Source: Myxococcota bacterium (GTDB lineage Bacteria; Myxococcota; XYA12-FULL-58-9; JABJBS01). From it: a stretch of DNA of 64,000 nt. Positions 39,708 to 58,748 of the stretch are shown piece after piece; positions within the stretch are counted from its first letter, which is position 1; every line of letters starts with the position of its first letter. The notes beneath the pieces are model-generated. The model had not been told where the DNA came from, did not search any database, and saw only the letters and a list, made by a program, of their open reading frames with translations. The stretch lies in NCBI GenBank assembly GCA_036339465.1, contig JAYZAY010000033.1:32001-96000 (forward strand). Direction: 5' to 3'. The position numbers and the translations under genes are program-made.

Positions 39708-42700
39708 ATGACGCAGTTAGAACTCTGGCAAAAAACAGAAAAGAAAGAGCTGCTGCGCAAGCTATTGATGCACCGATCACAATCGGAATTGAAACCCGTG
39801 TCCTCCGTACAATCAGACTTATTAAAGAGGCAATTCCGTTTTCCCAATGAGATCAACTCCAATATTTACGGCACTGTCTCCGCAGACTACAAGTTGGAGC
39901 CTGCCAAAATAGAGCAAATCCTCAATGAGCTAGCCAATACTCATGAGTTTTTTCGGACGAGGTTCTCTTGGAACCATGGCTATCCCGTCTATACCCTGGA
40001 CACAACCACGAATATCAACGACCTTCTATCCGTACATGAGGTCCATGACCCCAAGGAGGCACAGGAGAAAATAGACCACTTTCTACAAACCCCCATGGAA
40101 GTATTTTCCGGGCCTCCCATCCGATTCCTGATTTCCAATATTTTTCCGAACCACTCATTTTTCACCGTGGTCACCCATCATTGCCTCCTAGATGGCGATG
40201 CCCTATTTCGCTTGCTCCAAATAATCGGTTATCACTATCAAAACTCTACTCCACAAAAGCCCAAAAAAGACACCGACCAAACCTATGCTAACTTTGTCGC
40301 TCAAGAAACACTAGACATCCTACGGGGCGCTCCCAAAGCCCTCTCAAGGCTCCAAACCTGGCTGACCGACCTCAGCCCCAGCCAATTTACGCCAAACTAC
40401 TCCCTTGGCCTCAGAAAAGACTGTCGACCTGAACCCATTTTGAGACGAATCCAGAAATCTGAATTCACCCTGGTACACACTCTCAACTCAGAGAGTTACC
40501 GGCGATTCTCGACCTTTTTGTGGCTATGGGCAAAGCACCTCAAAATCTGGTATCACCTCGAAAACCTAGCCATCGCCATTCCCCACACCCGAAGATTCAC
40601 CGGCAGCCACCACCACATTCTCGGTTCAATGGCCGACTACTTTCCCCTCTTCATCACAAATAACCACTGCCCCAACGAAGAGATACGAAACATAGATTGC
40701 CAACTTATCAACATCATCGATGGGCACCAAGATTCCTCCTTCTCATTTCTCCAGCGACTCGTCGAGCGCGAGCATGGGTCCATACACCGTCACTTGTCGC
40801 AAACCGTATTCGACTACCAAGACTTCTCTCGAATTGAAGAACTTCAAAAAGACTTCAAGTTCATTGAGGGAGGCAGGCTAGGCCTACCGCCGGGAACCGA
40901 ATTAAGCCTCTCAATACGAGAATTTAATTCAGAACTCTTCGTTCGACTTGATTACAACAAAAATCTATTTTGCCCGTGGGATATGGAAAAACTTGTCGAC
41001 CACTTTATTCAGAAGCTAAGCGGGACTAGAGAAAACACCACTTTCGGCGAAAACCTACCACCGATAGCCAAAAACATCCCTGATTCGTTGCCCAATTTAT
41101 CAACGCGAATCGCCACAAACCTCCCCCATCTCAGCCCCTCAATAATCACGGACCAAAACCAGGTATGGACGTCGGAAAAACTGCAAGAAGAAATCCTGCG
41201 CTGGAAACGAACCTTCCACAATCTCAAACTTTGTGCCGGCGATATTGTTTCCGTCTCCCTAGACAGATCTTGTGAATACATTTCCATTGTCATTGCAATA
41301 TGGGACTTAGGTGGAATCTATCTCCCCATTGACTCCAACGCACCATTGAACCGAATCACGCAAATGCTTAAGGAAAGCGGAACGCGGTTCTTTGTCGCAG
41401 CTCAAGAGTCGCTTGACCCAGAAAAGCTAAAAATCCTCGTTCCTTCCTTGATATACCTAGACCCTAAAAAATCGCCACCCATTGCCACCCTCGAAAAAAT
41501 CCAGTCCTACCCTCTAGGCTCTCAAGCCCCTGCCTACATCCTTTACACCTCCGGAAGTACTGGCCGTCCAAAAGGGGCCATGGTTCACCACGGGGGCCTC
41601 GATAACCACACCCAGGCCTTCACCCAATATTTCCATATAACTTCCCAAGATATCATCGCCCAAACCGCAAGTGTACTTTTCGACATTTCTGTCTGGCAAT
41701 TGACTCAATTCGCATGGACTGGTGCCCAAACGGTCATTTTAGCGGATGAAGTGGTCTCTGACCCACTCCAGCTTTTACCTGCACTGCACCGACACGCAGT
41801 TACCATTGCTGAACTCACGCCCACACAATTGAAACTCGCCTTATCCTGCGCTGAAAATCCCCCCCCCCTAAAGCAGCTACGACACATGATTCTCATCGGT
41901 GAGAGCCTTACCCCAGACCTCTGTGCGCAATGGTACAACCGCTACCCCTATATCCCATTAACAAACGCGTACGGACCTGCTGAGTGCTCCCACGCAGTCA
42001 CCCTCCATACCGTCGCCAACAAACTGACCCAGGACAAATTCATCCCCATCGGTCAACCCATGTTGAATTGCGAGATTTCTCTCATTGACGATAAACACAA
42101 TCAAGTACCACCTGGTGCCATCGGAGAAATTCAAATAAAGGGCCCCTCTGTTGGCCTCGGTTACTTGAATAACCAGGATGAAACCAAGCGAGCATTTGAG
42201 TTTAAGGATCACAAAAGCCCAACCAATCGTTCCTATTTAACCGGTGACCTGGGTCGACTCCGTCGTGATGGCAAACTCGAGTTCATCAGAAGAAAAGACC
42301 ACCAATTCAAAATTCAAGGACATCGAATAGAGCCAGAAGAAATCGAGGTGTTGTGTAGAAGCTTCGAACACGTCACCAACGCCGGCTTAGGCGTTAGTAA
42401 CATCAATGGTCACCGTGAATTGGTCATCTTTCTCACCTTGAGCTCTGAAAAGAAAGAAATTCAAAACGAACTTACGCATTTTATCAATAGGGACTTACCA
42501 ATCCACCTAAGACCCAAGGCCATCAACTTCGTAATGGAACTTCCCAAATTAGCCTCTGGAAAACTAAACCGGCGTGCACTCAATGTAAAGGCCGAAGAAA
42601 TTCTCAAATCCATCGTCCCGCAAGATTTCGAACTCTACTTCGAAAATGAAACAGAAGAAATCATTCTTCGACAATGGTGCCAGCAACTGCGCATTAAAAA

Positions 42701-42977
42701 AGCCTCCAACCAAGACAATTTCTTCGAATTGGGAGGCGATTCCATTTTAGCCTCAAAAATAATAGAAAACCTCAATCACCTTCTCGAAAAGGAACTTCCA
42801 ATTGCAATCATCTTTCAAGCGCAATCAGCCCAAGCCCTAGCCACAGCGTATCAGCAAAAAGAGTCAGGCCAGTATAAGCTCAATAACAAGAGCGAATCCC
42901 GAGCCCAAAAACAACGAACCGCGTTCAATAATTTCGCCGCCAGAAATGCTTCAAACAAGTCGAAAAAACAGCCATGA
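39708..42977 (+). CDS. Single-module NRPS (C-A-T)
   Basis: HHCLLDG, YTSGSTGRPKG, NAYGPAE, YLTGDLGR, KIQGHRIE, LPKLASGK and FFELGGDS. Confidence 0.95.
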   Translation: MTQLELWQKTEKKELLRKLLMHRSQSELKPVSSVQSDLLKRQFRFPNEINSNIYGTVSADYKLEPAKIEQILNELANTHEFFRTRFSWNHGYPVYTLDTTTNINDLLSVHEVHDPKEAQEKIDHFLQTPMEVFSGPPIRFLISNIFPNHSFFTVVTHHCLLDGDALFRLLQIIGYHYQNSTPQKPKKDTDQTYANFVAQETLDILRGAPKALSRLQTWLTDLSPSQFTPNYSLGLRKDCRPEPILRRIQKSEFTLVHTLNSESYRRFSTFLWLWAKHLKIWYHLENLAIAIPHTRRFTGSHHHILGSMADYFPLFITNNHCPNEEIRNIDCQLINIIDGHQDSSFSFLQRLVEREHGSIHRHLSQTVFDYQDFSRIEELQKDFKFIEGGRLGLPPGTELSLSIREFNSELFVRLDYNKNLFCPWDMEKLVDHFIQKLSGTRENTTFGENLPPIAKNIPDSLPNLSTRIATNLPHLSPSIITDQNQVWTSEKLQEEILRWKRTFHNLKLCAGDIVSVSLDRSCEYISIVIAIWDLGGIYLPIDSNAPLNRITQMLKESGTRFFVAAQESLDPEKLKILVPSLIYLDPKKSPPIATLEKIQSYPLGSQAPAYILYTSGSTGRPKGAMVHHGGLDNHTQAFTQYFHITSQDIIAQTASVLFDISVWQLTQFAWTGAQTVILADEVVSDPLQLLPALHRHAVTIAELTPTQLKLALSCAENPPPLKQLRHMILIGESLTPDLCAQWYNRYPYIPLTNAYGPAECSHAVTLHTVANKLTQDKFIPIGQPMLNCEISLIDDKHNQVPPGAIGEIQIKGPSVGLGYLNNQDETKRAFEFKDHKSPTNRSYLTGDLGRLRRDGKLEFIRRKDHQFKIQGHRIEPEEIEVLCRSFEHVTNAGLGVSNINGHRELVIFLTLSSEKKEIQNELTHFINRDLPIHLRPKAINFVMELPKLASGKLNRRALNVKAEEILKSIVPQDFELYFENETEEIILRQWCQQLRIKKASNQDNFFELGGDSILASKIIENLNHLLEKELPIAIIFQAQSAQALATAYQQKESGQYKLNNKSESRAQKQRTAFNNFAARNASNKSKKQP

Positions 42978-45508
42978 CATCCTCCCCCAAAGTCGCCATC
43001 GTGGGTATTCGTTCCCGCCTTCCCAAAGCCTACCGGGTCAGTGATTTTTGGGATAATCTCAAGAACTCCCGAAATGGAATTTCTCGTTTCACACTCAAAG
43101 ACCATCAAGCTCCCAGCCAACTGGTAGGTGCTAAAGGGATACTGAAAAACTCACTTCATTTTAACCATGTCTTATTCGGCTATTCCAAAGAAGAAGCATC
43201 GTTCCTCGACCCCCAAGAGCGGATCTTGTTGCAACAGTGTCACCAGCTCCTAGCCGAACAGAACAGTATCGAAAACCATGACGACTTCATCACAGGGGTC
43301 TACACGAGTTCTGCAACGAGTCCCTGGCTAGAGCTTCTTCCCTACCTCGCCTCTTCGCTATCGGCATCAGAAAACCAACATCTTTTCCACCTTAACAATC
43401 AAAACTTGGTAGGCGCGAGAATCGCACAGAAACTCAACGTCAACGGACCATCAGCCTCCATAGGATCGGGTTGTTCCAGCGGACTCACCACATTGAGTTA
43501 TGCGGTCAAAGAACTATTAACGTACCAATGCGATTATGCTCTTTGCGGTTCAGCGAAAATTCAATTACCAGAAAAGTCCCCCTATCCTTCTGGGTTTGGG
43601 GATATCTGGTCGCCCACAGGGACCAATCATATCCTTGATGAGCACACTACCGGCACCATCCCCGGAGATGGAGCCATCACCCTCGCCCTCATGAGACTCG
43701 AAGACGCGGAAAAACACGATATCCCTATATACGGATCCATCACTTCATTTGCATCCGGAAATATCACCACAACCAACAAACAGAAATGGTTACCCGATCA
43801 AGACCTTCTCACAAAATTATTGACGCAATTATTCTATCTCACACCCGATGATTGTCCCACCCTGGATTATTGCGAAGTCTCGGCCAATGGTATTTTGGCC
43901 TCTGATCAAATCGAAATAATGGCTTGGAATAATGCCTTTGGCGCCACCTTCCCAAAACAGCCATACCCATACATCGGTACCGCCAAAGGATCTGTCGGCA
44001 ATATTGGCGGGGTCTCTGGGTTGGTGGGACTTGCAAAAATCCTGGGCAGCTTTCAAGAAGGCATGCTATTCAACGAAATATCGGTAAACACACCACACCC
44101 TCTCCTCCAGCTAAACGACCTAAGGGCACGCATACAGTGCAAAGGCGCTTTGTCAACAACTCTAAAGAATCGTTGCGCAGCCCTTCTATCCTATAACCAA
44201 TTCGGAGGCGCCACTGCCTTGATGGTTGAATGGTCAAGTGAGTGGAAACGCCCAGCACCGCAAACATCGCCCCCCCACCCAAGTGCAGACGACGTACACT
44301 GTGCTCCAAGCTATTTCACAGAACACCTCGCGAGTATCGAGAACTCATCCCATAAAGCAACGCTCCGTAACACACACATTGTCCGAAAAGACGACGGGCA
44401 ATTCGAAGAGTACCAAACTCGTTACTCCGACATCAAAGACAATGGCACTGGGCTAAAACCTCTATTTCGGGATATCATCTCCGATTTACTCGGCGCCCCA
44501 GAGGAGCCTCACTCCTTCGAACAAAACCTCTTTAAAGTAGGCTTGAGCTCTTTTCTCATGGTCCGGTTCATTGCCATCATCGAAAAAATAACGGGAACCA
44601 AATTACCCCTAGAGGCAGTTGCGAACTGCCATACCATCGAAAAAATCCATCAACTCTTTCACGAAAATCGTGTTCTGGGTTCTCGCGTAAGTCTATCCCC
44701 ACCAACACAAGTTATTGCAGAGCCTCTCTGTCAAGAAGCAGAATTGGCCACTCTTGTTCAATGGCTGGAACAAAACATCGATTCTACTCTCGAATACGTG
44801 GATTCTCTCATAGACCGCTCCAGTCGAAAGCTTCGATCGTGGAAAGTGATTCTAGACACTTGGCAAAATGACTATCACATCCTAGTGCTGCGCGCGCAAA
44901 ACAACGACAAAAGAAGTGAGGAAATCATCGGAATCGAGGTCCTCACCAAAAAAATAGCCTTGCCGGTTGTCGGCCAGAACCAAATTACCACCATCCCCCA
45001 TTTGTGGGAGTCTCAGATATGGTTGCCGAAAAGACACCGCAACCACTACGACTTGGGAAACATGGACTATAGTCGGTGCACCGAAAACAGCGGCTACAGC
45101 GCGGTGGCACAGGCCGGCATTTTCCTCGCACTCAGCACTGAAAATAAAACCGGGGCTTATTTCTGGGACTGGGTCTGTCAGCAAGTCGCAATAACACCCT
45201 ATGAGTTGAATCAACTCAAAGAAATTCAAACCCCAATACTTTCTCACCTCCCAGCCAATGGCCTTAAGCAGATCGCAAAAAATTTCGACGATTTTTTCTA
45301 TGAAAATATTTCGGGGTATCAATTAAAAAACATTTGGCACAATAACATTCAAGAAGACAAATTTGATATCCTGAGTAACCTCGTGGCTCCTCACCTAAAG
45401 GCTCCTCTCCGTAATATTCTAAATCTTGAGAGGATGGGAAAAACAGAGTTTCTCGGATACACACTTCGTTGGCTGGAGCCTGTTTTCTCATTGCGGTTAT
45501 CGACATGA
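42974..45508 (+). CDS. Divergent PKS protein: non-elongating KS (KS0), ACP, unknown C-terminal domain
   Basis: VAIVG, LDPQER, GPS...GCSSG. EVSANG and VGNIGG replace the two catalytic His motifs. ACP-like LFKVGLSSF. Confidence 0.85.
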   Translation: MTSSPKVAIVGIRSRLPKAYRVSDFWDNLKNSRNGISRFTLKDHQAPSQLVGAKGILKNSLHFNHVLFGYSKEEASFLDPQERILLQQCHQLLAEQNSIENHDDFITGVYTSSATSPWLELLPYLASSLSASENQHLFHLNNQNLVGARIAQKLNVNGPSASIGSGCSSGLTTLSYAVKELLTYQCDYALCGSAKIQLPEKSPYPSGFGDIWSPTGTNHILDEHTTGTIPGDGAITLALMRLEDAEKHDIPIYGSITSFASGNITTTNKQKWLPDQDLLTKLLTQLFYLTPDDCPTLDYCEVSANGILASDQIEIMAWNNAFGATFPKQPYPYIGTAKGSVGNIGGVSGLVGLAKILGSFQEGMLFNEISVNTPHPLLQLNDLRARIQCKGALSTTLKNRCAALLSYNQFGGATALMVEWSSEWKRPAPQTSPPHPSADDVHCAPSYFTEHLASIENSSHKATLRNTHIVRKDDGQFEEYQTRYSDIKDNGTGLKPLFRDIISDLLGAPEEPHSFEQNLFKVGLSSFLMVRFIAIIEKITGTKLPLEAVANCHTIEKIHQLFHENRVLGSRVSLSPPTQVIAEPLCQEAELATLVQWLEQNIDSTLEYVDSLIDRSSRKLRSWKVILDTWQNDYHILVLRAQNNDKRSEEIIGIEVLTKKIALPVVGQNQITTIPHLWESQIWLPKRHRNHYDLGNMDYSRCTENSGYSAVAQAGIFLALSTENKTGAYFWDWVCQQVAITPYELNQLKEIQTPILSHLPANGLKQIAKNFDDFFYENISGYQLKNIWHNNIQEDKFDILSNLVAPHLKAPLRNILNLERMGKTEFLGYTLRWLEPVFSLRLST

Positions 45509-47241
45509 CCCCCATATCAAATAGCAACCAAAAACTGGTCATTATTGAGGCCCACACTCGGGAAGGTCTACTCCAAGAAATAGACAAGCTCCGAATCGCG
45601 CTTTCCTTCCCTCCCGTCACTCCTATGGCCACAACCAACCATGAGGAAAAGACAACCCAGACTTTCAGACTGTGCTTTGTCGCCAACAATCTTGCAGACC
45701 TCCATGGGAAACTAGATTTTTATGCTAAAAGCCAATTTTTCCCTGCGATAACCAGTCCGAAGAAACTCGTATTTGTGTTTGGAGGACTACCAACGACCTT
45801 ACCCAAAGCGCTCTCAACAATTTTTAGTGAGTTTGACATTTTTCGACAGACCATTGAAGACTGCCAAACTGCAATTATCGAATCGGGATACAGCTTTGAC
45901 ATCCTCAGCCCACTTCAAAGCCCAAACAACAACGAGACAATATCAATACGCGACCACTCCATGCCTCTCTTATTTGCCGTTCAGCTAGGCATCAGTCTAC
46001 AACTTCAAGCCTTCGGAATATACCCGGATGCTATCATAGGCCACAGTTTAGGAGAATATGCTGGCGGTTGCGCCGCAGGAATAGGAAAACCAGAAGAAGT
46101 TATCGCAGTGGTCTGTGGTATCGCAAAACATTTACAATCCACACCTCTCAAGGGCCGTATATACAGCATTTTGGGGCCACGAGACCGATTGGACAAAGTC
46201 CTTAGTGACTTTACAGACAGCGCCTTCATTTCGTCGATTAACGGAGACAGAAGCTTTTTGGTCGCCCTAAACGACCGAGAGCAAGCACGGTTTGAGAGTT
46301 CAATCGATTCAGAAGGGCTAACATGCGAAAAGCTCTGGATTGATTACCCTTTCCATAGCCCATTGGCCAAACCACTCGGCGCCGAAATAGAATCACTTTT
46401 AAAGAGAGCAACCCTTACAACCGCCAAAACACCCTATATTTCTGGCGCCCTCGGACGAGAAGAAAACACGAGCGTCGCTCATACTGGCTACTGGAAAACA
46501 CAATTACTTGAGCCAGCTAGATTTGCCCACTGTATTCAACATGCCAATACCAGCTTCAGCGAGCCCTCATTTGTGGATAGTGGTCCGGGTTCCGAACTCT
46601 CTGCATTGATAAAACTCATGCGTTTCCATCATCGGCCTTTAGCCCTGCCCATGGTCCGAAAAAAAGTGACCGCCGAATTATTTACAGATAGCCTCAGCAA
46701 AATCTGGGAGGTTTACGACACTCCAAGTAACTTTGACAAGATAGTGACATCACATGTCATTTACCGAAAACAGGGGGCTGAAAAGAGAGAAACAAAGATT
46801 CATATTCCCGCCTTACAAAAAACAAAGTTCAGTGCACAAACTGTTAGGCAAGAATATTCAATTGAAGAAATAAACAGGTTCGTCCTCTCACAAATAGAAG
46901 CCTCAGCAGGACGTAAACTCGAACTCAACAGCCCCACCACCAGCCTAGGAATCGACTCCCTCGCAGTGCTCAACCTCATCACCTCATGTCTGGACCAATT
47001 CCGGATAGACTTAGCCGTTGAAAAGGTTTTTCGCGCCAAAACCGTCGGCGATATTGGCGAGTTGATTTTTTCCGAAACAAGAAAGATGAAGAAAGCGAAA
47101 AATGAACGCCAAAAAAATAGCATATTCATCAAGAAAGTAGAGGCAGAGATGATTCTCGATAGAATCGATTCCTTGACAGAGCCGGAGGTAGACCGCTACC
47201 TCCAATTGTTCTTATCAGAATGGGAAGACAAGCAAGCATGA
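45505..47241 (+). CDS. Stand-alone PKS linker-AT-ACP protein
   Basis: KS-AT linker-like N-terminus, VFVFGG, GHSLGE, PFHS, YW..QL.EP.RF and ACP LGIDSL. ATGA overlap with the upstream gene. Confidence 0.9.
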   Translation: MTPISNSNQKLVIIEAHTREGLLQEIDKLRIALSFPPVTPMATTNHEEKTTQTFRLCFVANNLADLHGKLDFYAKSQFFPAITSPKKLVFVFGGLPTTLPKALSTIFSEFDIFRQTIEDCQTAIIESGYSFDILSPLQSPNNNETISIRDHSMPLLFAVQLGISLQLQAFGIYPDAIIGHSLGEYAGGCAAGIGKPEEVIAVVCGIAKHLQSTPLKGRIYSILGPRDRLDKVLSDFTDSAFISSINGDRSFLVALNDREQARFESSIDSEGLTCEKLWIDYPFHSPLAKPLGAEIESLLKRATLTTAKTPYISGALGREENTSVAHTGYWKTQLLEPARFAHCIQHANTSFSEPSFVDSGPGSELSALIKLMRFHHRPLALPMVRKKVTAELFTDSLSKIWEVYDTPSNFDKIVTSHVIYRKQGAEKRETKIHIPALQKTKFSAQTVRQEYSIEEINRFVLSQIEASAGRKLELNSPTTSLGIDSLAVLNLITSCLDQFRIDLAVEKVFRAKTVGDIGELIFSETRKMKKAKNERQKNSIFIKKVEAEMILDRIDSLTEPEVDRYLQLFLSEWEDKQA

Positions 47242-48284
47242 CGGTGCCAATAAGCCAATACGAATTGCGCTGGAATTCGTCCACCCTTACCTTATCTTTT
47301 GAGGAGGACATTACCACTTTTGGCAAACCCGAAAACAAGCCAAACACGACCCAAAACACTACGTCGACCCATCTTTGGTGCAATGAAATTGAGACTTACC
47401 CTAAAAGTTCAATCACCAACCACTCCCACAGGGTCATCCTTCAAGCAAAAGGGCCTGATTTTCCTTGCCGAACCCAACTTCGGAACTCGCTCCAGCAATT
47501 ATGTTTAGAAAAAGAGTTCACTCCAGTCAGCACGCCCCATAGTTCACTCCGAACAAAGGCACTGACCGAATCAGTGGCAAGCGGGGTCACCCACATCGGT
47601 GACAAGATAGCCACAAAAATTTCCATTATTGAAGCATCACAAGCTGCAGATATTGAAAAAATCCCCACCAAGATATTGCAAGACTTTGCTACGGTTGAGC
47701 AATTCCTGGTAATAATCAGTGCGCCTCTGCTACGCGCTTTCAAACTCTGCGTTGAAACATTGGGCATACCACAAGAAATTCTTCCCATTCATATCAGACC
47801 TTGGTCACCCTCCTTACGATGCACCACAAACGCCGCCGACCGAATCATTCTGATGGATAAACATCACCTAGATGAAGACCGCCTACATGGATGGAAGCAG
47901 TGGTGCCCAAAAATTGAAACATGGGCCACGAGCTGGCGATGGGAAATCCTAGGACTAAACTTTCCCTTGGGATTAACAATGAACGACTCGTCATTTACCT
48001 GGCTTAAGAGAATGCTTGGGAATGAGTTTGACTACAACTTTTTTGAGCCCGACGGGGCCCAACCAACAACCACCTTGAATGCTTGTCACAATCTCTGGGG
48101 ACAAATCCAGATCCGGTTGAATCTCAAGTATGGCAGTGCATCGGTATTTACTGAGCGTTACCACAGAGGAGTCGAGTTCCTGATTAATGTATTTACCTTG
48201 TCTTATTTTGGTACTCCATTCTCAGTTATAAATCCAATAACAGACCCGGCCCAGCACCCTTATAGAAAAGGGATACCAACATGA
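47238..48284 (+). CDS. Hypothetical protein, likely a highly diverged BpsA-like fold with an AdoMetDC-like tail
   Basis: ATGA-coupled on both sides. By-eye similarity to the 57516-58676 protein, and tail FFEPDG...GQIQIRLNLKYGSASVFT. Confidence 0.55.
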   Translation: MTVPISQYELRWNSSTLTLSFEEDITTFGKPENKPNTTQNTTSTHLWCNEIETYPKSSITNHSHRVILQAKGPDFPCRTQLRNSLQQLCLEKEFTPVSTPHSSLRTKALTESVASGVTHIGDKIATKISIIEASQAADIEKIPTKILQDFATVEQFLVIISAPLLRAFKLCVETLGIPQEILPIHIRPWSPSLRCTTNAADRIILMDKHHLDEDRLHGWKQWCPKIETWATSWRWEILGLNFPLGLTMNDSSFTWLKRMLGNEFDYNFFEPDGAQPTTTLNACHNLWGQIQIRLNLKYGSASVFTERYHRGVEFLINVFTLSYFGTPFSVINPITDPAQHPYRKGIPT

Positions 48285-49495
48285 CCGACGAGTTGCAGAA
48301 CAATGAGCCCCAAAAAGAGACTCTCGTGGTTTCAGAGTTCTCCATAATCCAAAAAAGCGCGAGCCATAAAGATATTGCCTCACCGAAAGCAGAAAATATT
48401 GGGTCCAATATTTCCGCATGCAGAGAAACTCTTTCCGAGCTTGGTTATCGAGATGCAAGCAAAGCACTATCGGGCTCAGAAATTTTACGCACCCACCCCT
48501 CTAAAGTGCTTGAAATCGCGTATCAAGCGTACCGAGTGGCCTATGATTGCCCCGGCATGCTCATGCCTGAAATACCTCTCATCGAAGACCGAATCGGCCT
48601 AATAACCCAGCAACACAAAGGAGAAGTTGCACCAGTTTTACTCTTCGGTGACCTTGCTTTGGAAGCCATTATTCTTACCCTTCATGGTTACCCAACAACC
48701 CTCGTTGCCACAGAGCCCTATGGCCATGGCTTCGCCCAAAAATTTGCTGAACTATTTCCCCCAAAGCGCCTCCAAATCATAGAAATTGGTGACAAACAGG
48801 TAAATCAAACGATACACGATTCCAGGCCTTCGATCATTTGGTGCGAGCTTTGGGCAAACCCCTATTTATTTGGCACCGTTCTCCGCCCCATCCTCGACTT
48901 GGCCACCCCCGAAAACAAGATTTGGGTATCACGCCCCATTACTCTCACCCATCAAATCATGGCAATTTGCTCTTCCATGGGCTGGACCATCGCAGAGCAG
49001 CACAAAGACATTCGCACTGTACTCAAAGAAAATAGATATCGCGATGATTGGTTGCGCTTAGAACCCATCGACAAAGAAAGACCACGAAAACGAAACAACC
49101 CAACCGCACCCCAAAAAGAGATCTGCCTTCCAAGGAAGTTTCAAAGTGAGCCATTCCTGCTGTTAACCGCTGCCGTCTCTCCCAATAATTTGTGTAGATC
49201 ACCCAGTAAACAGCTCGAGGACTTCAAACTGAGCATCGAATCCCTAGGGTATTTTCAAAAACCAACGGAAATATATATTGATTCAACCCAGCTCTATTTC
49301 AAATTAGAGATGGCACCCGGTTGTTTGAGAGTGGGATTTTCGGCCGCAAGAAACCGAATCTCCATCACGGGATCGACGCCAGAAAATCCATTGGCCAGAC
49401 AACTCTTCATGCATCTAGTCCAGGCTCTTCACTGTGACATTCACAATGTCTTTTCCAGTCACACTCAAAACTCATTGGAATTACATATCTCTTAA
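48281..49495 (+). CDS. Degenerate BpsA/DUF43-like protein with an AdoMetDC-like tail
   Basis: YRVAYD...IEDRI...VLLFGDLA...IIWCELWANP parallels the 56167-57519 protein, but GDDD is lost. Confidence 0.6.
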   Translation: MTDELQNNEPQKETLVVSEFSIIQKSASHKDIASPKAENIGSNISACRETLSELGYRDASKALSGSEILRTHPSKVLEIAYQAYRVAYDCPGMLMPEIPLIEDRIGLITQQHKGEVAPVLLFGDLALEAIILTLHGYPTTLVATEPYGHGFAQKFAELFPPKRLQIIEIGDKQVNQTIHDSRPSIIWCELWANPYLFGTVLRPILDLATPENKIWVSRPITLTHQIMAICSSMGWTIAEQHKDIRTVLKENRYRDDWLRLEPIDKERPRKRNNPTAPQKEICLPRKFQSEPFLLLTAAVSPNNLCRSPSKQLEDFKLSIESLGYFQKPTEIYIDSTQLYFKLEMAPGCLRVGFSAARNRISITGSTPENPLARQLFMHLVQALHCDIHNVFSSHTQNSLELHIS

Positions 49496-49640: not shown

Positions 49641-50249
49641 GTGGAGATGAGCGTGGATAAGCTTCTAAAAAGAGCCGAGGAAGATAAAGAAGGAATAATC
49701 AGCCACTTCCGAGAGCTTAAGGGCGAATTTGGCACTGGGCAACTCTTGACCCTGGAAAACTACGACCAATATAAAGATGTCTTCTTTGAATCTCCCAAAA
49801 CAAAACGGCTATTTACCAATGACCCGGAGTTAAGAGTTAGAAAGCTCAAAGAGGTGATCGCAAACGGTCTTTTTGTTTGGGAATTCACACCCGATGGAGC
49901 AAGCGGCGTCGAATTTCTAGTGGGTCTGAGCGTGGCCCACCGGCCCAATGACTTTGTATTGCTGCACCCACTCATTGCCCCAGAAGAGCTGGACTTAGAC
50001 AGTGTTGAGGAGGCCATCACCATGATGACCCATGTTTATCTAACCAACAGCGATAGAAAAACACTCTTTCTCTTTATGGCCGAACAAGACGACGATGACT
50101 TATATGGCGCTTTGGTAAATGTGGGTTATGCAGAGTACGAGGCTCCCAAAGAGTGGGGGGAAAGAAATCTCGATTATTATATCATTTGGCGAGATGCCTA
50201 TGATGTGGACGCACTGGCCCCAGACCTCGTCGAGGATCTCGATATTTAG
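49641..50249 (+). CDS. Acidic hypothetical protein, possible degenerate RimJ/RimL-type GNAT fold
   Basis: IAPE...VEEAITMMTHVYL...LYGALVNVGY pattern, without the usual Gly-rich CoA loop. Confidence 0.55.
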   Translation: MEMSVDKLLKRAEEDKEGIISHFRELKGEFGTGQLLTLENYDQYKDVFFESPKTKRLFTNDPELRVRKLKEVIANGLFVWEFTPDGASGVEFLVGLSVAHRPNDFVLLHPLIAPEELDLDSVEEAITMMTHVYLTNSDRKTLFLFMAEQDDDDLYGALVNVGYAEYEAPKEWGERNLDYYIIWRDAYDVDALAPDLVEDLDI

Positions 50250-51395: not shown

Positions 51396-52289
51396 ATGGA
51401 CTCCGATGATACGAAAAAGATTGTAATGAGCTGTAGGCCCCAACTCCTTGAAGATGGCGAGATTACCCCACATGGTTCAGATAAAATAAGTAACTACTTT
51501 CGCATTGGGAAAAAATGGTTTTTGAGGATTTGGAATACTCCCAAACCACATACAAGCGACACACCACCTAAAATCCCCTTAAAACTCCAAACCTATGGCC
51601 AAGAAAACTTTATCGTTTTTCCAAAGGCCCACCCATTTGTTGCTGGGAATACGAATTTCGGTTACTTCTCCGAATTGGTCGTGGGAGTTCACCCCCAAAA
51701 CCCGAAACAAATGAGCCAAAAACCTTGGGCACATCATTTTCTTACCAGTGCCATCGCTCTATTGGGCACCCTCCATGCACTCCGCTTCGAAAAGCAGCCA
51801 ATTCATTTCTCAAATATGGACCCAACTGATTTGTTCGAAAGACATCAAAGCCAACTGAAAAAATACTTTCCTAGGAGAATCCTATTACGCTCCATGGATA
51901 TTCGCGCCACCCTAGAATCTACCCAGGGCATTTTCAATGCAAACACTCTAGCGACCCTCCATACCGACTTCTGGGACCAAAACCTCTTTTGTCATCACCA
52001 ATCGGGTCGCCTAGTCGGGGTTATCGACTATGGCGAATGGCCACTGGGAGATCAAAGTTGGGACCTAGCGCTATTATTTAAAGGAATGCCAAAAACACTT
52101 CGTAGAATCGGCGAAGAACTATATTGTGAGCAAAGAGCTTTCACTCGGCTAGAACAAAAGGCACTCCTACGCAGAAGGATAACCGCCTGGCAGGAGTTCG
52201 AAGTCATCTATAATTTCCTGAGAACCATCTCATACCACCCCGAGGAAAGCGCATTCGCTTATGAAGCGGTTGTAAATCGCCTATGCTAA
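51396..52289 (+). CDS. APH/choline-kinase family phosphotransferase
   Basis: LHTDFWDQNL (HxDxxxxN), VIDYG and GDQSWDLA. Confidence 0.88.
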   Translation: MDSDDTKKIVMSCRPQLLEDGEITPHGSDKISNYFRIGKKWFLRIWNTPKPHTSDTPPKIPLKLQTYGQENFIVFPKAHPFVAGNTNFGYFSELVVGVHPQNPKQMSQKPWAHHFLTSAIALLGTLHALRFEKQPIHFSNMDPTDLFERHQSQLKKYFPRRILLRSMDIRATLESTQGIFNANTLATLHTDFWDQNLFCHHQSGRLVGVIDYGEWPLGDQSWDLALLFKGMPKTLRRIGEELYCEQRAFTRLEQKALLRRRITAWQEFEVIYNFLRTISYHPEESAFAYEAVVNRLC

Positions 52290-56166: not shown

Positions 56167-57519
56167 TCAGATTCGCCGTTTCCCGTCTTCGGACTTCTTA
56201 CAAAAATCCAGACTCCATTCCGATGAGCCAGTAAACTTGTCCACATGATATTCACCGGACGCCATCAAATTACACCCAATCTCCACCAGCCGATGGCCCA
56301 GTTCCGGCAAGAATGGAAAGAGCCGAAATTCCAATCGAAGACGACTTGGATCCGAACAAACTTGTAGGAGGGTCCCCAAACCAACCCGCAGCGAAGCAAT
56401 TTGCGCCCCACCACATATTAAACGACCTACTTCAACAATTTGTTCCTCTCGATTTTCTTTCAGATAGTCGATCAATAAATCCATATACGTGCCCGACAAA
56501 TCCCGCAACGAATGAAGATTGGACCATGTCACTCGAAAAACTGTCTGATGAGAGATCGGTAATTCGCGGTCAAAGAGCTCTAGCTCTCCATCAAAATCAA
56601 AGTAGGATTGGCACTGCCCCATCGCCATGGAGTCTTTTTGGCATATCACATAATCACTTTCATAAGGGTGAACAACCAGTTCCTGAGTATAATACTGATT
56701 CAATCTATAATGGGTTTCATGAATCGCAAAACGATATTTTTCGCTCAGACGAACAAATTCCCGGCGAATCAAAGGATTGACCGCAATCCCCAAAACCCCA
56801 CCCGGCTTCAAAAAAGATCTCGCTCGAGCCAAAACAAGTTCGAGGAAAGTCGGCGTCGGCATGGGATCGGTAAAAACCAGGTCTTGGGTCTCAAATAACT
56901 CCTCGGGGGGAGGTGTTCGAAAATCGTAGTATCTGGCCACAAGGTCATCATTGATACACGAAACTGTCTCCAACAAATTGGGGTCAGCATCCAAAACCGT
57001 AACACCTATATTTGAACGCATATTCAGACCCGCACAAAGAAAATCATCATCCCCCAAACATAGCGCCTTTATCTCCGAGGGATACTCTTTAAATTCTAAT
57101 GCGTGCTGGATCCTGGCCACCACAACCGATGGCAAAACAGGGCATTGACCCAGGGAAAAATCGTACCACCGCCTGGATGAATGAGCTTTGAGCACAGACT
57201 CCAACATCGCTTGATACTCTTGTTCATTGTCGGAAATTTCTTTGCGACAAAGAGACGTTAATTCTCTAAGTAGGTCACACACCACCGAATCATATTTGTG
57301 TTCTTCCCTATCCTCTTGAGAAACAACAAGTCCCTGATTTAGAAGTTCACCCACATCTTCATCCAAAACATCCTCGCCCTGAACCATTTGTTCAATCACT
57401 TGAGTCAAATCGAGAGAAAGCTTATGGACCCTTCTTTCGGGAGTCGTAAGGTCGATGAGCTGGATACCTTCCTTCGAATAGCTGGCAACCACACCCGTGC
57501 GTAACCGAAGCAAACTCAC
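56167..57519 (-). CDS. Branched-chain polyamine synthase (BpsA/DUF43)-like protein with an AdoMetDC-like tail
   Basis: YDFSLGQCP...VVARI, LGDDDFL, VTVLDAD, YDFRTPPP, DLVFTDP and ARSFLKPGG. GTG 57519 overlaps the upstream TGA and follows GGGAG. Confidence 0.82.
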   Translation of the reverse strand: MSLLRLRTGVVASYSKEGIQLIDLTTPERRVHKLSLDLTQVIEQMVQGEDVLDEDVGELLNQGLVVSQEDREEHKYDSVVCDLLRELTSLCRKEISDNEQEYQAMLESVLKAHSSRRWYDFSLGQCPVLPSVVVARIQHALEFKEYPSEIKALCLGDDDFLCAGLNMRSNIGVTVLDADPNLLETVSCINDDLVARYYDFRTPPPEELFETQDLVFTDPMPTPTFLELVLARARSFLKPGGVLGIAVNPLIRREFVRLSEKYRFAIHETHYRLNQYYTQELVVHPYESDYVICQKDSMAMGQCQSYFDFDGELELFDRELPISHQTVFRVTWSNLHSLRDLSGTYMDLLIDYLKENREEQIVEVGRLICGGAQIASLRVGLGTLLQVCSDPSRLRLEFRLFPFLPELGHRLVEIGCNLMASGEYHVDKFTGSSEWSLDFCKKSEDGKRRI

Positions 57520-58676
57520 AACAATGCTCCCGCTTTGGATAGCTGCGTTTTTCCTACCCAGTCCGTCCTTACCGGTAAGCGGCGGGTATAAAGACCACCA
57601 AAGTGGTATAAGAAGGCTAAACATACCAAACGCTCAAGCCCTACCTTCCCTTGGGGGCATAAAAATGAAAGTCTTGCGGAATTCGTCTTGGGGTCCAATA
57701 ACATCGTTAAATCCTCCCCCATATCCCCTAACCACGAGATGAGTTCGAAATCGCCCACATCATAGAGACTGAGTTCTCCGCGCTTACGGTCAAACAATGC
57801 CTCTAACACCATAAGAAACGGCGAGGCGCCGACATTCCCCATCTGCTTGCGGTCCAACTCAACGAAGCTCATATCAAAACGAAATACTTCGAACTTGGGG
57901 TCAGAGGAGAAACGCTCCACCCAATAAAGGGCTTCTCTTATTTGTCTCACTCGAACCAACAATAGGTCAGCTGATTCATCGAGTGTGGTTCCCTTGGGAG
58001 TAACCCAAGATTCAGCATCCTTTGAAGCTCTGACAAGTTCGAGGGTGCCGTTTTGAAAAAGGGAAGAGAGAATACGATCCCAAGGAGACCTGACCAGTAA
58101 CACCATTGCATCACCATCCTCAATGAAACCAAGAGCAGTCTTCAACTGTAGAAGACCAGTCTCAATATCTCCCAAACTAATCAGCGGTAAGACACACTCC
58201 TGCCTATCGAATGTCTGCTCATGCAATCGGGTCAAAATTGTTTTCGTAAACAATGACTCATCCAGCGCTTCAAAATGTGCAACGACCTCACTGGTGATCA
58301 CCAGATGTAAGTTCTGTCTCCTGCTTCCGTCAGAGAGATGCGGATTCCAATAATCAAAACCAAGAAGCGTCTTCCCAAAGACTTCGTTTCCACACCAGTC
58401 TCGTAATAACCGGGCGCTCCTCGCCTTATCATTCTCGGAACTTCGAAACCAGCCACCACATCCATCAAAGCAATGGAGGGGCTCACCCTCATCAACGAGG
58501 CTATCATAGAGCACCCATATATCCCTTAACGAAGGATTGGTTTGGAGATAACCTTCGAATTTCTGATTCCAGGAAGGACTTGAAAGAATCAAGTCGGAGC
58601 TCTTAATGATCTGTGTAGGAGGACCGATATCAGGCAATCGGGTATTGGTGGGAGCACCAAAAATAACTCGGCTCAC
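57516..58676 (-). CDS. Hypothetical protein, likely a diverged BpsA-like fold with an AdoMetDC-like tail
   Basis: LKTALGFIEDGDAMVLLV...ADLLLV parallels ARSFLKPGGVLGIAV...SDYVIC of the next gene. Confidence 0.6.
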   Translation of the reverse strand: MSRVIFGAPTNTRLPDIGPPTQIIKSSDLILSSPSWNQKFEGYLQTNPSLRDIWVLYDSLVDEGEPLHCFDGCGGWFRSSENDKARSARLLRDWCGNEVFGKTLLGFDYWNPHLSDGSRRQNLHLVITSEVVAHFEALDESLFTKTILTRLHEQTFDRQECVLPLISLGDIETGLLQLKTALGFIEDGDAMVLLVRSPWDRILSSLFQNGTLELVRASKDAESWVTPKGTTLDESADLLLVRVRQIREALYWVERFSSDPKFEVFRFDMSFVELDRKQMGNVGASPFLMVLEALFDRKRGELSLYDVGDFELISWLGDMGEDLTMLLDPKTNSARLSFLCPQGKVGLERLVCLAFLYHFGGLYTRRLPVRTDWVGKTQLSKAGALL

Positions 58677-58748
58677 AATGATTCTCTCGTAAAATGATAC
58701 AGGGACACGCTTACAAATTTGGCCGAAAAGGTCGAGTGGCGTGAGCTA

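Follow-up and report, generated by a model that had tools for sequence, protein, structure and literature searches.

How can a short biosynthetic line make and release a product when its ketosynthase (KS) lacks both catalytic His residues, its acyltransferase (AT) lacks the malonyl-binding Arg, and no thioesterase (TE) is encoded with it? This question is raised by a five-gene operon (g1-g5, 39708-49495) that combines nonribosomal peptide synthetase (NRPS) and polyketide synthase (PKS) domains. It lies in a 64,000-nucleotide stretch, here called the window, that covers positions 32,001 to 96,000 of contig JAYZAY010000033.1 (C33) of a Myxococcota bacterium. The source genome (GCA_036339465.1; 4.17 Mb) is 92.8% complete, and DNA of the window is present in marine or seawater metagenome runs, with no RNA run among those listed. 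We propose that g1-g5 form a non-elongating line that joins an acyl group to an amino acid, probably one of the diamino type, and releases the N-acyl product by amide transfer to an amine and not by a TE. The probability of this reading is, in our estimate, about 0.4. The order of the proteins (AT-carrier, NRPS, KS-carrier) together with the lack of elongation is its firmer part, which we consider probable; release by transfer to an amine is tentative, its chances being somewhat short of even.

All five genes are intact open reading frames (ORFs) on the + strand, encoding proteins of 1089, 844, 578, 348 and 404 amino acids, and a public protein collection contains the operon proteins with exactly these starts. 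The 4-bp ATGA overlaps of the original prediction were found at all four junctions (g1-g2 at 42974, g2-g3 at 45505, g3-g4 at 47238 and g4-g5 at 48281). Genome-wide, a rough script counted in-frame ATGA overlaps in 142 of 1498 adjacent same-strand pairs of long ORFs (9.5%), a background at which four out of four would occur by chance with a probability of about 8e-5. Four consecutive overlaps against this background indicate a coupled operon. A promoter and terminator scan gave a result at chance level. Pfam profiles identified condensation, adenylation and thiolation domains (C-A-T) in g1, a KS plus an acyl carrier protein (ACP) in g2, and an AT and an ACP in g3, and matched no family in g4 or g5. 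As predicted, there is no TE within the operon, and the TE matches of the genome all lie on other contigs. A stand-alone phosphopantetheinyl transferase is encoded in the genome. The operon consists of the following features:

39708..42977, + strand: g1, NRPS C-A-T with an N-terminal docking helix at about residues 12-26 and a basic C-terminal tail.
42974..45508, + strand: g2, hybrid-clade KS that keeps its active Cys only (KS0), ACP with Ser525 and tail X; no N-terminal docking domain.
44675..45505, + strand: tail X of g2, 277 amino acids C-terminal to the ACP, candidate release or acyl-transfer domain.
45505..47241, + strand: g3, remnant of a KS-AT linker, AT, ACP and a two-helix C-terminal docking domain (about residues 542-573).
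47238..48284, + strand: g4, likely a far-diverged copy of gene A, the partner of a BpsA-like gene (degenerate BpsA paralogue), judged by profile score and motif register.
48281..49495, + strand: g5, likely copied from gene B (BpsA-like) and far diverged from it, reading GDLA instead of GDDD at residues 123-126.

Alignment to solved KS structures bore out that the KS of g2 keeps its Cys (Cys167) and has both His replaced (His303Ser and His343Asn), with EVSANG in place of EAHGTG and VGNIGG in place of IGHCES/VGHLDA. The Cys-His-His triad of an elongating module is incomplete. It is typical of KS0 domains that the active Cys is kept and the His of HGTG is missing (PMC7327777), and the g2 KS shows the same combination. 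Since both His are absent, no elongation by g2 is expected. In g3, alignment to solved AT structures showed that the AT retains Ser181 and His284 and carries Arg206Ile, VVCGIA replacing IAARGR, in agreement with the predicted loss of the malonyl-binding Arg; the ACP serine is Ser485. This Arg is common to dicarboxyl-specific ATs (PMC5655351), and g3 therefore does not classify as an extender AT. Its layout, an AT-ACP didomain with Ser and His and no Arg, resembles type B loading modules of the DEBS type (PMC5655351). It differs from them in being derived from an extender module, as seen from the N-terminal KS-AT linker that the original prediction had missed, in having Ile at the Arg position, and in that it would feed a C domain and not a KS.

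The order AT-ACP, C-A-T, KS0-ACP departs from the order of the genes. A complex model of g1 (residues 1-450) with g3 (residues 445-578) scored 0.76, compared to 0.00 for the best of three controls, and passed a docking mark that 51 of 78 solved complexes reach, as do 2 of 108 mismatched pairs. In this model, residues 12-26 of g1 pack against residues 542-573 of g3, with a partner pLDDT (predicted local distance difference test) of at least 71 and at least 82% of contacts agreeing between runs. The modelled contact is a PAX-type three-helix arrangement at the junction of carrier and C domain, in which one helix of the N-terminal docking domain is clamped by two helices of the C-terminal one. 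Likewise, in PaxB/PaxC a single N-terminal helix before the C domain is packed by two C-terminal helices after the carrier (PMC9113145); the likeness is one of modelled arrangement, and the donor in our case is an AT-ACP protein encoded downstream. The basic tail of g1 is like those of NRPSs located ahead of KSs of the clade with which the g2 KS groups (see below), and the end of g3 is like PKS C-terminal docking helices. The best KS matches in relatives stand directly behind NRPS A-T domains, the nearest being elongating KS-AT modules behind NRPSs. In a tree of 20 rows, for which the reference KSs had been picked by similarity to the g2 KS, the latter grouped on a very long branch with nine after-NRPS KSs and two of unknown context, apart from eight others (support 100/100), that is, with the aminoacyl-accepting clade. 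The docking model, the termini, which are like those of homologous clusters, and the KS tree support the order g3, g1, g2.

Residues, gene coupling, homologies and neighbourhoods were observed, and the docking of g3 on g1 was modelled; starter loading, condensation and relay we infer as follows. Without the carboxylate-binding Arg, the AT of g3 would load a monocarboxylic acyl starter onto its own ACP. This protein would dock on the N-terminal helix of g1, as modelled, and the C domain, judged by its intact motifs, would join the acyl group to the T-bound amino acid. The basic tail of g1 would then deliver the chain to the g2 KS, which, going by KS0 precedent, would only pass it on to the g2 ACP. 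The gene order C-A-T, KS, AT, the KS-AT linker with which g3 begins, and the elongating nature of the nearest KS relatives would also suit a colinear split hybrid module, in which the linker-AT of g3 docks on the g2 KS to restore a KS-AT, and the aminoacyl chain is lengthened through non-canonical catalysis. We consider this very improbable, because both KS His and the AT Arg are absent, the C-terminus of g3 was modelled on the N-terminus of g1, and the C domain of g1 would be left without a donor.

A relay of this kind has precedents. In the chlorosphaerolactylate line (ClyB/ClyE/ClyF), a degraded PKS with a KS0 acts as an acyl relay between carriers via docking domains, and the product is a short acyl monomer (PMC7923214). 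There, however, the KS0 precedes the NRPS, the starter is loaded by a FAAL, the AT has lost its Ser and release is by a TE (PMC7923214), whereas in g1-g5 the AT keeps Ser and His, the KS0 follows the NRPS and there is no TE. In the enacyloxin system (Bamb_5919 KS0, Bamb_5917 PCP, Bamb_5915 C), a terminal KS0 hands over to a carrier, and a transferase instead of a TE releases the chain onto an external acceptor (PMC13684122). Release in that case is the work of a C domain that stands alone and has a long polyketide as its substrate (PMC13684122), while here the candidate is the fused tail X and the chain would hold one amino acid.

Which amino acid g1 would use was read from its A domain. The protein has the C motif HHCLLDG (His158), Asp659 and Lys952 in the A domain and Ser1012 in the T domain, and the closest solved single A domain is that of the last module of PvdL, of the 2,4-diaminobutyrate (Dab) type. 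With the pocket positions numbered as we take them to be, the alignment to PvdL gave DIWEIIAHAK for g1 and DIWELTADDK for PvdL, a match at 6 of 10 residues. The last module of PvdL incorporates L-Dab (PMC13119372). A diamino acid as the substrate of g1 is a lead only.

How, then, could the chain leave the line? Tail X, on which the original prediction had not remarked, occupies the position where a release domain would sit. Its sole profile match was Gly_acyl_tr_N (glycine N-acyltransferase; E 0.021, 15.4 bits), which belongs to the acyl-CoA:amino acid N-acyltransferase family, and at E<=1 tail X was the only place in the genome matched by this profile. No homologues of tail X were found in PDB, in PHROGs or in 301 genomes of the phylum, nor in a 90% protein set, in which the search covered lengths of 152-485 and fused forms fell outside. 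Profiles of the neighbouring gene g6, its paralogue, S-adenosylmethionine decarboxylase (AdoMetDC) and gene A gave nothing. We rejected tail X as a third degenerate copy of B: the motif order was seen by eye, the local comparison was not significant, and a global score of 7.7 (best shuffle 7.0), obtained with a profile that lacked the last 7 of its 26 rows, came from a 12-column end match and was dismissed. We suggest that tail X may move the acyl-amino acid onto an amine, for instance a polyamine.

The last two genes were compared with an order-wide pair, A-B, in which B is like BpsA (branched-chain polyamine synthase). When compared with family B by hhalign, g5 gave an E of 5.6e-4 (score 35.9; best of 20 shuffles 20.9); its semi-global profile z was 7.6, as high as which none of 697 ORFs scored, and language-model features marked it as BpsA-like (0.91, 201/256 common). 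For g4 against A, the semi-global z was 4.4, above 150 of 150 shuffles and reached by 4 of 740 genome ORFs; local hhalign was not significant, and an atlas search gave nothing for g4. There were no cross-matches, g5 matching B and g4 matching A. HMMER alone with the A and B profiles detected neither gene, and BLAST against the local A-B pair was not significant. With g5, we found no related cluster in 22 genomes, and among 1.84 billion representatives only an 80-amino-acid fragment of g5 itself. By these profile comparisons, g4-g5 are likely far-diverged duplicates of a BpsA-like gene pair, to which two further features of the window are related:

49641..50249, + strand: g6, single-copy, without a Pfam match and GNAT-like by eye only; homologue of the gene that opens a g6-AdoMetDC-A-B operon in relatives.
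56167..58676, - strand: original A-B pair (57516-58676 and 56167-57624), directly behind translocator and chaperone genes of a type III secretion system (T3SS; 58749-63978).

In family B the fold is that of BpsA (pLDDT of the model 89.9; Foldseek E 3e-18; profile E 8e-31) and GDDD is intact; the family has extra N- and C-terminal domains that look, by eye, RRE/PqqD-like and AdoMetDC-like, respectively. GDDD is indispensable for BpsA, which is described mainly as a thermophile enzyme (PMC12979288; PDB 5XNC/6J27). Compared to BpsA, g5 would share the fold by descent from B and has GDLA for GDDD, while family B itself differs in its extra terminal domains and its A partner. As g5 lacks the aspartates that position decarboxylated S-adenosylmethionine (dcSAM), g4 and g5 may be acceptor-binding or scaffold subunits and not aminopropyltransferases. 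Together with tail X, this pair is the most promising candidate for what ends the line, and the product would likely pass to an amine or a protein instead of being hydrolysed. The earlier claim of an N-acyl amino acid passed on without extension or TE was supported for non-elongation and for the missing TE, and fell short in leaving out tail X and the BpsA-like pair.

The original A-B pair lies about 7 kb from the operon. Its B (56167-57624) keeps GDDD, is strongly drifted (33 bits, compared to 71-105 in relatives) and shows 5 non-synonymous versus 1 synonymous single-nucleotide polymorphism (SNP). Altogether, 19 of 22 genomes of the order have a BpsA_C gene, mostly as an A-B pair. Of 18 A-B loci, 12 have a g6 homologue, 11 have an AdoMetDC, and 11 have a T3SS chaperone gene or the conserved gene next to it; among the seven that lack the latter, five have less than 4 kb of upstream sequence, and many of the 18 are kin. 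Neither Pfam, nor the relatives' profile, nor tblastn detected AdoMetDC in the source genome, the only one without a match among 13 well-assembled genomes of the order; no nspC over the cut-off was found. In the same family, an ACP adjoins B in two genomes (G001, G004), and a KS-KS plus ACP pair lies inside the locus in a third (G003). A domains and type I KS/ATs are absent from all 18 loci of relatives.

This last result, the short distance to the original A-B pair and a stand-alone TE-family gene elsewhere in the genome (C62, 144 bits) would all agree with a plainer account, in which the same three proteins make a simple N-acyl amino acid, its release being hydrolytic, by a TE acting in trans or by water, and g4-g6 are passengers of a local duplication of the T3SS-linked operon. 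We regard it as unlikely, since g4 and g5 are ATGA-coupled to g3 and open despite their extreme divergence from the local pair, and with a TE able to act directly on the T domain there would be no need for the KS0-ACP step. The neighbourhoods could instead be taken to mean that the line acylates a T3SS protein (e.g. a translocator), with the A-B-g6 duplicate giving target recognition and an N-acyl diamino acid replacing the dcSAM-derived aminopropyl of the relatives. The T3SS, g6 and AdoMetDC counts, the singular lack of AdoMetDC in the source genome and the ACP and KS-KS genes beside B all favour it; this evidence is gene neighbourhood throughout, drawn from kin that are not independent and from a genome that is incomplete, and we consider the idea rather improbable. 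A broader proposal, for which we see only an outside chance of much the same order as hydrolysis, is that a minimal NRPS/PKS line was grafted onto a T3SS-linked aminopropylation module (g6-AdoMetDC-A-B), and that this lineage, having lost AdoMetDC, attaches an N-acyl diamino acid to a polyamine or to the secretion machinery via a new fused transferase.

Several loci deserve mention in their own right. The A-B operon beside T3SS chaperone and translocator genes was seen in the window (56167-63978, - strand) and in L051, L052, L054, L055, L058, L062, L065, L067 and L131. The T3SS-linked operon of G003 (L133:4975-11431, G003:C202) contains as insertions the KS-KS fusion and ACP, a paralogue of g6, a gene of the metallo-beta-lactamase fold and a kinase of APH-like type; an APH-like gene also occurs in the window (51396-52289). 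A second B-type paralogue (B2) is found in L011, L013, L017, L019, L033 and L035, short loci with no obvious A partner. In an Armatimonadetes record (L106:9557-16489), a canonical BpsA gene and a C-A-T NRPS are encoded on opposite strands, 2.5 kb apart.

Is the line specialised, or is it decaying? We defined near-invariant columns from 19 KS, 12 AT and 8 A references and used as within-genome control a modular PKS on another contig (G000:C22:12540-19568), of canonical FAAL-ACP-KS-AT-(DH-like)-ACP-TE layout and adjoining a FabH-like gene. The operon keeps 36/64 of these columns in the KS, 30/56 in the AT and 78/126 in the A domain (54-62%), compared to 74-100% in the references and 96% (KS) and 77% (AT) in the control. 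None of the nine residues that activation, tethering and acyl transfer require has been lost (His158 in C, Asp659 and Lys952 in A, the three carrier Ser, Cys167 in the KS, Ser181 and His284 in the AT), and the three malonyl-handling residues are gone. Given a background retention of 55-62%, keeping nine of nine has a p of 0.005-0.014 for a set that was chosen post hoc, after the data had been seen. The 3258 codons of the operon are open, while neutral drift would be expected to give 4.3 stops at 1% divergence; in four marine runs we counted 8 SNPs (5 non-synonymous, 3 synonymous), no stop and no indel. The composition of the operon has drifted toward strand bias.

The reduced retention, the shifted composition, the loss of GDDD in g5 and the lack of a detectable AdoMetDC are what a relic under relaxed selection might look like, its frames retained for a scaffold role or one partial activity in a line that no longer turns over. 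We find this doubtful: the nine transfer residues including all three carrier Ser, the docking ends and the four coupled junctions are retained, neutral decay would have yielded stops long before such divergence, and the four runs are free of stops and indels. The broad drift nevertheless means that the loss of His/His/Arg alone is no proof of specialisation. The claim of a specialised KS0 and loading AT draws its support from the kept transfer residues more than from the losses, which sit on general drift.

Further points weigh against the non-elongating line with amine release. The drift is general within g1-g3 and, as judged by the column counts, specific to the operon locus; losing three of three elongation residues by chance has a p of 0.05-0.09; the operon pN/pS of 0.48, from 5 non-synonymous and 3 synonymous sites, is not distinguishable from neutral (p 0.26); and the first-codon G content is low for the strand (2nd percentile for g1, 0.3rd for g4), as under weak constraint. 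In the AT of g3 the GQG motif has become GLP, which could also mean an impaired AT, and the g2 ACP has GLSS, without Asp before Ser525; the original prediction mentions neither change. The docking model may have passed through its likeness to the solved PaxB/PaxC complex. The KS tree suffers from the choice of its references, and the branch of the g2 KS (8.58, median 0.49) makes its placement unsure. The pocket of g1 departs from that of PvdL at four positions, both acidic DD residues reading HA, so that Dab is not assured, and no Dab aminotransferase over the cut-off was found in the genome (best 231 versus 402 bits). The match of tail X (15.4 bits) is under the Gly_acyl_tr_N cut-off of 31.2, its single-sequence fold model was unusable (pLDDT 36), and fold searches gave no meaningful match. 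Finally, no homologous cluster was found in which co-conservation could be tested.

Searches for relatives agree with the latter. With g1, no related cluster was found in the 22 genomes of the order, and the members of the operon's protein clusters are near-identical copies only. With the g2 KS protein, the best matches in 41 genomes had 30-34% identity over the KS domain only, again with no related cluster; the 90% protein set gave 8 non-self matches, all ordinary PKSs, and a metagenome scan gave 6 loci of generic KS/FabF-like type. The operon is a singleton lineage, which limits our confidence.

Two further observations concern the window. Just upstream of the operon (36612-39245) lies a gene for an 877-amino-acid Fic-domain protein with weak similarity to XopAC/AvrAC-type effector families, possibly a secreted effector. 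At 61229-62393, the T3SS translocator-like genes are far more polymorphic across the marine runs than the NRPS/PKS operon, with dense SNPs and in-frame indels.

In the accessible parts of the literature on NRPS with BpsA, on GNAT release with polyamines, and on T3SS with aminopropyltransferases, we found no description of such a system, nor of the g6-AdoMetDC-A-B operon or of a BpsA-T3SS or BpsA-NRPS/PKS linkage. Each enzyme type has a precedent; the architecture itself is without a relative in the databases and literature as searched. A stand-alone result is that, across the order, a conserved BpsA-like pair lies beside T3SS translocator genes together with an AdoMetDC of its own, although BpsA is described mainly from thermophiles (PMC12979288). 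The novelty of g1-g5 is in the combination: a line that would do no more than load, condense and hand over, in an order that differs from that of its genes, that ends in an orphan domain and that is coupled to genes of pseudo-BpsA type. Should the line be active, it would be a small testable model for the reuse of elongating modules as acyl relays, and it would possibly offer a new chemistry of release, or a cationic lipo-amine made by an uncultured marine bacterium that has T3SS genes.

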